The notes: generated from the letters alone by a model not told the origin. A stretch of 14,169 nucleotides of DNA from a virus (IMGVR_UViG_2687453466_000005), one strand, 5' to 3'; shown: positions 12,074 to 14,169, counted from the first letter of the stretch. Program-made: numbers and translations.

Positions 12074-12319
12074 ATGCTTCAAATGTTAACTCTTGAAGAA
12101 TGGGCTGCTGAAAAATACAGAAGTAATCCTCCAAGTGTGTCCACATTGCGTCGTTATGCTAAGCAGAATTTATTTTGTCCACCGGCCATGAAACAAGGCC
12201 GGTTATGGCGAGTGCGTGAGGACGCCGAGTTAGTTGGGGAGTTGGTAACACCTGTAATCAAGAAAAATGACTCATTACTTTTGCAACGGATTTTGAGTAA
12301 TGGCAGCCAGACCGCGTAA
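12074..12319 (+). CDS. xisE: Excisionase XisE (small HTH DNA-binding protein)
   Basis: 81-aa ORF with AAGGTGA RBS; overlaps the intE start by 20 nt. Confidence 0.75.
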   Translation: MLQMLTLEEWAAEKYRSNPPSVSTLRRYAKQNLFCPPAMKQGRLWRVREDAELVGELVTPVIKKNDSLLLQRILSNGSQTA

Positions 12320-13241
12320 GAATAATGTTTCAGTCCCTAACTTATATCCGCTTTATAGTAGGAAGGTAAATAAAGTCTATTGGCGGTATAAGCATCCAGT
12401 GACAGGAAAATTCCATGCTTTGGGAACAAACGAAGCTGAAGCTATCGCTATTGCCACTGAGGCCAACACTCGCCTGGCTGAACAAAGAACCCGGCAGATT
12501 CTGGCTATCAGTGACAGGATCGCAACCAGCAAAGGAAAGGCTATCACAACGTCAACCTGGTTAGATCGCTATCAAGCGATCCAGGATGACAGGCTTAAAA
12601 GTGGTGATATAAGACTCAACACCTATAAACAAAAAGCTAAACCAGTATCCTTGCTCAGAGAACGAGCAGGAATGAAGTTGATCTCAGCCGTTGATGTCAG
12701 AGATATAGCACAATTGCTTGATGAGTATATCGCCGCTGGGCGGCCAAGAATGGCACAAGTAGTTCGCTCCGTCCTGATTGATGTTTTCAAAGAGGCGCAG
12801 CACTACGGAGAAGTACCTCCTGGCTATAACCCAGCATTAGCCACTAAACAACCAAGAAGAAAAATTACCCGACAACGGCTGAGCCTTGAAGAATGGAAAA
12901 AAATCTTCGATATCGCAGACGCTACTCATCGTTACATGGGAAATGCCATGCTGTTAGCGCTGGTTACTGGTCAGCGGTTAGGTGATATTTCGCGTATGAA
13001 ATTTAGCGATATTTGGGATGATCATCTTCATGTCATTCAGGAAAAGACCGGGAGCAAAATCGCAATTCCTCTTTCTCTTCGCCTCAATGCGATTAACTGG
13101 AGTTTACGCGATGTAGTAGCCCGCTGCCGTGACTATGCAGTCAGTGCATACTTAGTGCATTTTTTTCGTTCAACTTCACAAGCAGAGCGCGGAGCGCAGG
13201 TTAAAGCCAATACATTGACGATGAATTTTGATAAAAACTAA
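12300..13241 (+). CDS. intE: Lambda-family tyrosine integrase IntE, apparently C-terminally truncated (313 aa; ends before the box II HxxR / His / Tyr catalytic motifs)
   Basis: N-terminal and core-binding regions plus the box I Arg (LVTGQRLGD) and the Lys (QEKTGSKIAIP) are present, but the ORF stops 64 aa after that Lys; all three forward frames have stops within about 55 nt downstream. Confidence 0.75.
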   Translation: MAARPRKNNVSVPNLYPLYSRKVNKVYWRYKHPVTGKFHALGTNEAEAIAIATEANTRLAEQRTRQILAISDRIATSKGKAITTSTWLDRYQAIQDDRLKSGDIRLNTYKQKAKPVSLLRERAGMKLISAVDVRDIAQLLDEYIAAGRPRMAQVVRSVLIDVFKEAQHYGEVPPGYNPALATKQPRRKITRQRLSLEEWKKIFDIADATHRYMGNAMLLALVTGQRLGDISRMKFSDIWDDHLHVIQEKTGSKIAIPLSLRLNAINWSLRDVVARCRDYAVSAYLVHFFRSTSQAERGAQVKANTLTMNFDKN

Positions 13242-13275
13242 AAAGTCCACTTTAAGCGAGCGGCGGACAGCCATA

Positions 13276-14169
13276 TCAGTTACTGGTAAGACGTGAAATA
13301 TCACAGAGAAGATCACCTAAAATCGATGAAAAGGACTCCCCATCTAGATTCACATTGATATTTTTGCCATGGAAAAGATATTGAAGCATCACTGTACATA
13401 GAGCTTCAATCAACTCTTCATTTCCGACAGGGTAGCATGAAATATTCGAATATATACGCTCATATGCAGCTGGGTGTGTATTTTGTAAACAGAAGTAATT
13501 TTCAACTTCTAAGCTTTGTATACAAAGCACTGCCGTAGCAATGCCAAGTGCACGTTTCTTTAATTCAGGAGCGGATTCATACAGGTTGCCTAATATCCAT
13601 TTTGTAGCATGTGAATCTGCTTCACGCTCCTCTTGAGTGGAGAATGCTGTAGTGACCAATGGATGCTGTAAAACAACATGACTTATTTCATGATGAAGAA
13701 TCCAAGCAATAGCACAAAGAAATATCTCGCTAGCAACTTGTGAGTCTTCGCTTCCTTGTAAATATGCTTCTGGCTTGGGACATTTTTTAGGCCATGATTC
13801 GCAACCTGTTGTTTGCAAGTTTTTCCTTGCCCATTTAAGAAGTTCATCAGACTTTTTAAGCCTATTTTTTCCTGTTAAATCAAAGTGCTCATCATTATTT
13901 TTCTGAGATTTGGAGTACTCTTGCGTAAAAACCCAAAAGAAATTGGAAAATGCCCAAATATATTCAAGTGAAGCTACTGTTAGAACTATTTCATGTGAAT
14001 TATTACTCTCATTCTTCCTGACTCGGATATTAAAACCAGGTTCACTCACAACTGAAATTATAATTTTTTTGTCGTCAACTATCGTTTTAAGATCTTGCTC
14101 CTTCTCTGGTGCAATCTTAAATGGTGATGAATTAATTGCTGAGAAAAGATGACAAATTGGTGAGCGCAT
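13276..14169 (-). CDS. lit: Lit zinc metalloprotease (phage-exclusion / abortive-infection protease that cleaves EF-Tu when triggered by the T4 Gol peptide)
   Basis: 297-aa ORF starting with ATG exactly at the window end; contains the HExxH zinc-binding motif (ILHHEISHVV); translation recognised as Lit; markedly AT-rich compared with neighbouring intE. Confidence 0.9.
   Translation of the reverse strand: MRSPICHLFSAINSSPFKIAPEKEQDLKTIVDDKKIIISVVSEPGFNIRVRKNESNNSHEIVLTVASLEYIWAFSNFFWVFTQEYSKSQKNNDEHFDLTGKNRLKKSDELLKWARKNLQTTGCESWPKKCPKPEAYLQGSEDSQVASEIFLCAIAWILHHEISHVVLQHPLVTTAFSTQEEREADSHATKWILGNLYESAPELKKRALGIATAVLCIQSLEVENYFCLQNTHPAAYERIYSNISCYPVGNEELIEALCTVMLQYLFHGKNINVNLDGESFSSILGDLLCDISRLTSN

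Follow-up and report, generated by a model that had tools for sequence, protein, structure and literature searches.

The lit gene of prophage e14 very probably sits in a swappable AT-rich cargo slot next to the integrase gene, and the lesions found in the neighbouring integrase and restriction genes of this copy are not evidence of selection. This joint explanation bears on an earlier note, written from the DNA sequence, which had read lit and mcrA as separately acquired defence genes flanking a lambdoid core, and the survival of lit beside damaged genes as a sign of selection. Overall, the observation made in that note was partly confirmed and its interpretation partly supported: the cargo reading was correct and the selection reading was unsupported.

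The window and its differences from MG1655

We refer to the whole stretch of DNA analysed, 14,169 nt, as the window. When compared by megablast with 5,426 complete genomes of E. coli, all of it proved to be E. coli K-12 DNA, most of which is the e14 prophage. The window edges are the ycgX ATG at position 1 and the lit ATG at 14169 on the minus strand. According to the MG1655 annotation, the first part of the gene order is ycgX, ymgK and iraM, then icdC (the attR remnant), mcrA, pinE and the invertible tail-fibre segment; the second part comprises structural-gene remnants, the ymfL/croE/cohE early region, ymfH, xisE, intE and lit. K-12 e14 continues past the right end of the window with ymfE, ymfD and then attL inside icd, so that lit is separated from attL by ymfE and ymfD and does not form the end of the element. 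An Rfam scan of the window gave no match at gathering thresholds. The features used below are as follows, L001 being the K-12 (MG1655) locus.

1-1529: chromosome outside e14, with ycgX, ymgK and iraM, left of icdC
1530..1697, minus strand: icdC, the displaced icd 3' end that marks the attR end of e14 (L001 3030-3197; ORF 1530-1694)
1928..2182, minus strand: C-terminal HNH fragment of mcrA, 84 aa, out of frame (HNH 6.8e-16; mREase_IV profile positions 194-277/277)
2215..2760, minus strand: N-terminal fragment of mcrA, 181 aa (mREase_IV profile positions 1-175/277), ended by the frameshift of a 1-bp deletion at 2237/2238
2867..3457 (K-12 annotation 2867-3421), minus strand: pinE serine invertase, not AT-rich (GC 0.488)
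3483..5321: Pin-invertible P segment, with 21-nt inverted-repeat arms at 3483-3503 and 5301-5321 and 1797 nt between them
12074..12319, plus strand: xisE excisionase, intact (Pfam Exc, 2.2e-12)
12300..13241, plus strand: intE', truncated tyrosine integrase gene encoding 310 native residues followed by DKN, with the arm-binding and core-binding domains kept
13229..13230: junction of a 242-bp deletion that removed intE codons 311-375 and 43 nt of spacer, with 1 nt of microhomology
13237..13263, minus strand: terminator-like hairpin and T-tract downstream of lit (L001 15006-14990 plus tail)
13257..13260: backbone/cargo boundary, at which homology to icd-integrated relatives stops, 16 nt from the lit stop (L001 15000-15003; window coordinate equals L001 minus 1743)
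13276..14169, minus strand: lit, encoding the cell-death zinc metallopeptidase Lit, 297 aa, intact, with HEISH at residues 160-164

Base-by-base comparison revealed four differences from MG1655 in the window, which is otherwise 100% identical across lit and the backbone. The first is the 242-bp deletion with its junction at 13229/13230. The second is a run of eight G residues in MG1655 that has seven here (window 1020-1026, between ycgX and iraM), and the third is the 1-bp deletion in mcrA at 2237/2238. The fourth is the Pin-invertible segment, which is flipped relative to the MG1655 record. The G7 run upstream of iraM reflects either natural variation in homopolymer length or an error of sequencing. 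Flipping of the P segment exchanges the tail-fibre C-terminus and the assembly gene joined to the constant part; this inversion is normal Pin biology, and an identical 1797-bp inversion has been described in XL1-Blue (PMC11148124).

The lit gene is intact

Over its 894 bp, the lit DNA shows no difference from the MG1655 gene (100% identity), whose annotation is cell death peptidase Lit, and the identity to MG1655 covers the last 941 bases of the window. The encoded protein matched Pfam Peptidase_U49 (PF10463) with 1.7e-112 over profile positions 1-202/202 and the PADLOC Lit model with 8.5e-124 over profile positions 1-289/290. With a full-length profile match, an HExxH motif and identity to the characterised e14 protein, it belongs to the Lit / Peptidase U49 family, and the gene in this region is lit of the defective prophage e14 of E. 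coli K-12. Its DNA, HExxH motif, neighbours and full-length profile matches are those of Lit of K-12 e14, and the coding sequence is no different. Compared with the K-12 locus, it is the convergent intE that is truncated here, which leaves a spacer of 34 nt between the intE and lit stop codons, versus 90 nt in K-12. The hairpin downstream of lit is kept; the deletion junction lies 7 nt beyond its T-tract.

Because the window stops at the lit ATG, the lit promoter lies outside it. A simple consensus scan of the K-12 lit upstream region returned no sigma-70-like site on the strand of lit. Strong T4 exclusion requires up-promoter lit(Con) mutations, so an intact lit ORF is no guarantee of the phenotype.

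The system of Lit, Gol and EF-Tu is already known, as a textbook case of abortive infection. Lit is a latent zinc metalloprotease of the HExxH type, with the HExxH motif as its active site (PMC3014915). Its trigger comes late in T4 infection, with translation of the Gol segment of the major capsid protein gp23. Gol attaches to domains II and III of EF-Tu, domain I becomes exposed as a result, and Lit then cuts EF-Tu between Gly59 and Ile60 (PMC3014915, PMC6379469). Cleavage of EF-Tu halts translation, and the cell dies before phage release, which constitutes abortive infection (PMC3014915, PMC6379469).

lit is part of an AT-rich block

Per-gene values placed lit at 36.8% GC with a GC3 of 27.5%. 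The corresponding figures were 44.6% and about 38-42% for xisE and intE', and about 50-54% and 52-60% for the flanking host genes; the e14 structural core has 54-60% GC. The two genes next to lit in K-12 are also AT-rich (ymfE, GC 0.309; ymfD, GC 0.348). That lit is more AT-rich than xisE-intE, as the earlier note had stated, therefore held (GC 0.368 versus 0.446, two-proportion z = -3.6). Within the e14 part of the stretch, only 2.7% of windows 894 bp long were as AT-rich as lit, and these lie at the mcrA/attR end.

To place the boundaries, we used segmentation by optimal-partition dynamic programming at a lenient and a strict penalty. Binary segmentation of GC was dropped since it missed the lit block, a dip that requires two boundaries together. 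In the full K-12 element, stable change points were found at L001 15040 and 17780 at both penalties, which makes lit-ymfE-ymfD one AT-rich block (L001 15040-17779, ~3 kb, 34.5% GC). The change point at L001 15040 is about 20 bp from the lit stop (L001 15019). With the segmentation confined to the window, the change point at lit (13201) was found at the lenient penalty and lost at the strict one, as no more than 960 bp of the AT-rich block are available there. The GC profile along the element, which the earlier note had proposed as a check, revealed an uneven composition, with the lit block distinct in the full K-12 element.

Different cargo occupies the slot between intE and attL in relatives of e14

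The homology between K-12 and three icd-integrated relatives spans xisE-intE, reaches ~75 nt beyond the intE stop, and returns at L001 18012-18131, beside the icd 3' end. The GC edge (L001 15040) coincides with the homology break (~15003). At the position of lit, these three and a fourth relative (RM10466) hold other genes, with recognised or candidate defence systems among them:

STEC388 (L003 8347-10986): a methylase matching PD-Lambda-5_B (1.9e-121) and an AAA ATPase
MS10860 (L004 8516-10890): a Septu-like PtuA ATPase (2e-239) and an HNH protein (PDC-M01B, 1e-114)
JNE120442 (L002 8601-12621): a Ppl-like/TrlF ATPase and a hypothetical protein
RM10466 (L011 1-534): a large TPR protein instead of lit

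Across K-12 and these relatives, the slot between int and attL therefore has five different occupants. In four of them (K-12, STEC388, MS10860 and JNE120442) the slot has a GC content of 33.6-40.7%, versus about 45% in the adjoining xis-int. JNE120442 is the most informative comparison for the cargo reading: its XisE, YmfK, YmfJ and YmfT share protein accessions with K-12, and its cargo differs.

The distribution of these genes was taken from the 5,426 complete genomes. We found lit DNA in 283 of them, all at 99% identity or more, those listed being overwhelmingly K-12 derivatives. The xisE-intE module is present in 503 genomes, about 220 of which are non-K-12 and carry it at 80-95% identity. 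The ymfE-ymfD pair has the same count as lit (283 genomes, all at least 99% identical to K-12); separating the pair from lit by distribution fails, as both are in 283 K-12-type genomes. As for the two genes themselves (L001 16370-17740), ymfE had no Pfam hit, and ymfD encodes a SAM-dependent methyltransferase with a faint PADLOC mad2 match.

These observations give lit the marks of a cargo gene, namely a distinct composition and presence or absence at the same position among close relatives. They show that the ~3-kb AT-rich lit-ymfE-ymfD block fills a variable slot between intE and attL at icd, with lit as the integrase-proximal gene, and that icd-integrating relatives share the xis-int module of ~45% GC and hold other, mostly defence-type, cargo in the slot.

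The AT-richness of lit could also be explained by constraint at the protein level or by local function, such as amino-acid composition or silencing by H-NS, with lit ancestral to e14. AT-rich DNA in E. coli is typically H-NS-bound, Lit is a toxic protease for which tight repression would be of benefit, and Lit homologues in two other contexts are AT-rich relative to their own contigs. The GC deficit of lit is, however, greatest at synonymous third codon positions (0.275 versus 0.52-0.60 in flanking host genes). Moreover, the compositional edge is also a homology breakpoint common to three relatives, and JNE120442 has different cargo on a nearly identical backbone. We consider an ancestral, constrained lit very improbable, and return to lit as exchangeable cargo.

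The position of lit is reminiscent of the morons of HK97 and lambda and of the defence hotspots of P2 and P4 prophages, named here from general knowledge. Like these, lit is AT-rich, independently oriented and followed by a terminator-like hairpin, and its place is fixed, beside the integrase gene and the attachment site, where relatives carry other defence genes. Unlike these, the slot belongs to an icd-integrating family that has a lambda-like early region together with contractile-tail structural genes, and in K-12 it contains three genes, two of which (ymfE and ymfD) are without an assigned function. A tblastn search for Lit gave no match among 50,697 phage records; because no Lit was found in deposited phage genomes, calling lit a phage moron would draw only on its prophage context.

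It is conceivable, although rather unlikely, that the slot between int and attL is a defence-cargo exchange hotspot at which lit-ymfE-ymfD arrived as one unit, that ymfE and ymfD are a second defence or partners of Lit and not passengers unconnected with it, and that the intE deletion locks this cargo in the chromosome.

mcrA sits in a second cargo slot

At the opposite end of e14, mcrA has 38.4% GC and a GC3 of 30%. A change point was found at the pinE 3' end, so that mcrA and the short spacer before pinE are in an AT-rich block and pinE is outside it. The description of the mcrA-pin end as AT-rich thus stands for mcrA (0.384) and fails for pinE (0.488). The mcrA block is continuous with the chromosomal flank ycgX-iraM (the first ~1.5 kb, 32.6% GC), and composition alone cannot set mcrA apart from this flank.

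mcrA is absent from most prophages with an e14-type int, and it does not travel together with lit, being present in 340 genomes versus 283. RM10466 encodes a McrA protein identical to that of K-12 and lacks lit. In the e14-type prophage of PEC165, which has a tail module of the e14 type, an acyltransferase gene and a LEM-3-like GIY-YIG gene replace pinE-mcrA, and a 371-bp stretch by attR is kept that is homologous to window 1700-2070 and overlaps the mcrA 3' end. We conclude that mcrA sits in a second cargo slot, between pinE and attR. The homology break, the swapped occupants and the independent assortment of the two genes bear out the reading of lit and mcrA as defence cargo that was acquired separately and lies on either side of the core. 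Cargo would have entered both slots by recombination, independently of the backbone; this direction of exchange, as opposed to a backbone swapped around the cargo, is inferred from five relatives.

PEC165 carries two prophages in tandem at icd (L015 4349-9700). At the same site, RM10466 (L009, L011) has a relative of e14 that is apparently complete: early genes of lambda-like type and lysis genes are combined with a head of HK97 type and a tail that is contractile (sheath, tube, baseplate J/gp47). It reveals which parts were lost from K-12 e14.

The mcrA of the window is the same gene as that of e14, at the same place between pinE and attR and equally AT-rich. Unlike McrA of e14, the window copy is inactivated, as the 1-bp deletion splits the N-terminal DNA-binding part from the HNH part. 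The single polypeptide with both recognition and HNH domains that is expected of McrA, a type IV (methylcytosine-dependent) HNH endonuclease, is therefore missing.

The integrase is truncated

The catalytic residues of lambda Int are R212, K235, H308, R311, H333 and Y342, the last being the nucleophile. Full-length K-12 IntE aligns to residues 15-374 of lambda Int (PDB 1z1b) with E = 3e-55 and conserves all catalytic boxes of the lambda integrase (PDB 1z1b, 1z1g, 1p7d). Unlike lambda Int, IntE' of the window (313 aa versus 375 aa in K-12) stops after native residue 310 and has no His-x-x-Arg box, second His or tyrosine nucleophile. The equivalents of lambda R212 and K235 are retained; H330/R333 (lambda H308/R311), H353 (lambda H333) and the nucleophile Y362 (lambda Y342) are lost, which leaves the tyrosine-recombinase set Arg-Lys-His-Arg-His-Tyr incomplete. 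In Pfam, IntE' matched Arm-DNA-bind_1, and Phage_integrase over profile positions 2-96/172 only. Given the missing catalytic residues, IntE' would be catalytically inactive, and excision by this e14 copy is predicted to be lost.

The deletion junction was absent from the 5,426 complete E. coli genomes. This was searched with a 60-mer and then with a 90-mer that has clean flanks, since masking of an A-rich run could leave the 60-mer with no 28-base seed. A search of 153 billion gene positions gave no record of the truncated IntE' protein. The private intE deletion is the sole unrecorded feature of the window and could be a sequence artefact. Slipped-strand deletion between TGAATTT repeats was considered as its origin and rejected, because the predicted product differs from the observed junction.

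The lesions belong to this copy

It is possible, though on balance unlikely, that the apparent sole survival of lit has no biological cause, the lesions of this one sequence being errors of sequencing or assembly, or else deliberate edits. Both 1-bp deletions shorten short homopolymers (G8 to G7; on the plus strand, CCC to CC), a typical class of error. The 242-bp deletion is without a counterpart in the databases searched, and its junction has no IS or repeat signature beyond the single nucleotide of microhomology. Spontaneous deletions without flanking repeats do occur, however, and the mcrA deletion has counterparts elsewhere: it is identical in contigs from at least four SRA runs (L005-L008), one of which (L008) is 100% identical to window 1401-3503 (2.1 kb), deletion included. 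Since it recurs in these contigs, the mcrA lesion is real.

The window's mcrA frameshift was found in none of the complete E. coli genomes, where the best identity was 99.9%. Three SRA contigs carry the deletion on a diverged background, with 2 mismatches in mcrA and a flank that encodes a DUF3626 protein. The deletion allele is either old and circulating, or recurrent. The mcrA frameshift of elppa4 is a different one (C5 to C6).

The reference e14 of MG1655 has both intE and mcrA intact. Prophage e14 excises precisely and often, in separate events in different lineages (PMC4444293). Among E. coli records deposited as plasmids, two circular ones of 15.2 kb, OR902851.1 (L012) and OR902858.1, appear to be excised e14; they run from mcrA through xis/int to lit with an icd fragment, and in both the ORFs are broken into many pieces, probably owing to indel errors. 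The truncation of the integrase and the break in mcrA characterise this copy and not e14, which is a corrective result of the analysis.

Selection for abortive infection is an improbable explanation of the intact lit

As the earlier note had observed, an intact lit (an ORF of 297 aa) lies beside a damaged intE (IntE' of 313 aa) and a damaged mcrA (fragments of 181 and 84 aa). The note went on to suggest that selection maintains the abortive-infection function and leaves mobility and type IV restriction, being unselected, to decay. Decay of these genes is indeed repeated elsewhere. The intE gene is interrupted by IS3 in DH1 (NC_017625.1; also NZ_CP047127.1) and in XL1-Blue (PMC11148124), and is frameshifted in MS10860 (L004 7121-8247), in which the defence genes alongside are annotated as intact; these losses are independent. 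Frameshifts in mcrA occur in elppa4 and several SRA assemblies. The Lit family, moreover, shows purifying selection, with a dN/dS of 0.28 against the 74%-identical homologue.

Against this explanation, the intE deletion is unique to the window sequence, the reference e14 is intact in both genes and mobile, as described above, and other natural copies retain an intact McrA with an identical protein. In addition, the lit-bearing genomes (all at least 99% identical to K-12) appear to be one largely clonal laboratory lineage, which gives no independent sampling, so that an intact lit says nothing at the population level. Three random lesions would spare lit with a probability of about 0.81. Since the lesions belong to this copy and not to e14, there is no selection story to build on them, and the suggestion that either lesion results from selection favouring lit is not supported. 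We therefore regard selection for abortive infection as an improbable reason for the state of the window, and retain the reading in which lit is slot cargo and the lesions say nothing of selection.

lit, its mechanism, e14 and the carriage of defence cargo by prophages are already known biology. The characterisation of e14, mcrA, pin and the icd attachment site goes back decades, and the main value of the present analysis in this respect is confirmation. That both ends of e14-type prophages at icd are exchangeable, AT-rich and largely defence-type slots fits the picture of prophage defence hotspots.

Lit homologues beyond K-12

The nearest non-identical Lit homologues are 73-74% identical and come from SRA assemblies. 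The neighbourhoods of the 74%- and 58%-identical homologues shared no conserved Lit partner. Further homologues, at most 58% identical, are scattered among Proteobacteria and include ones on Aliarcobacter and Burkholderia plasmids. The 74%-identical homologue is, like lit, AT-rich relative to its own contig.
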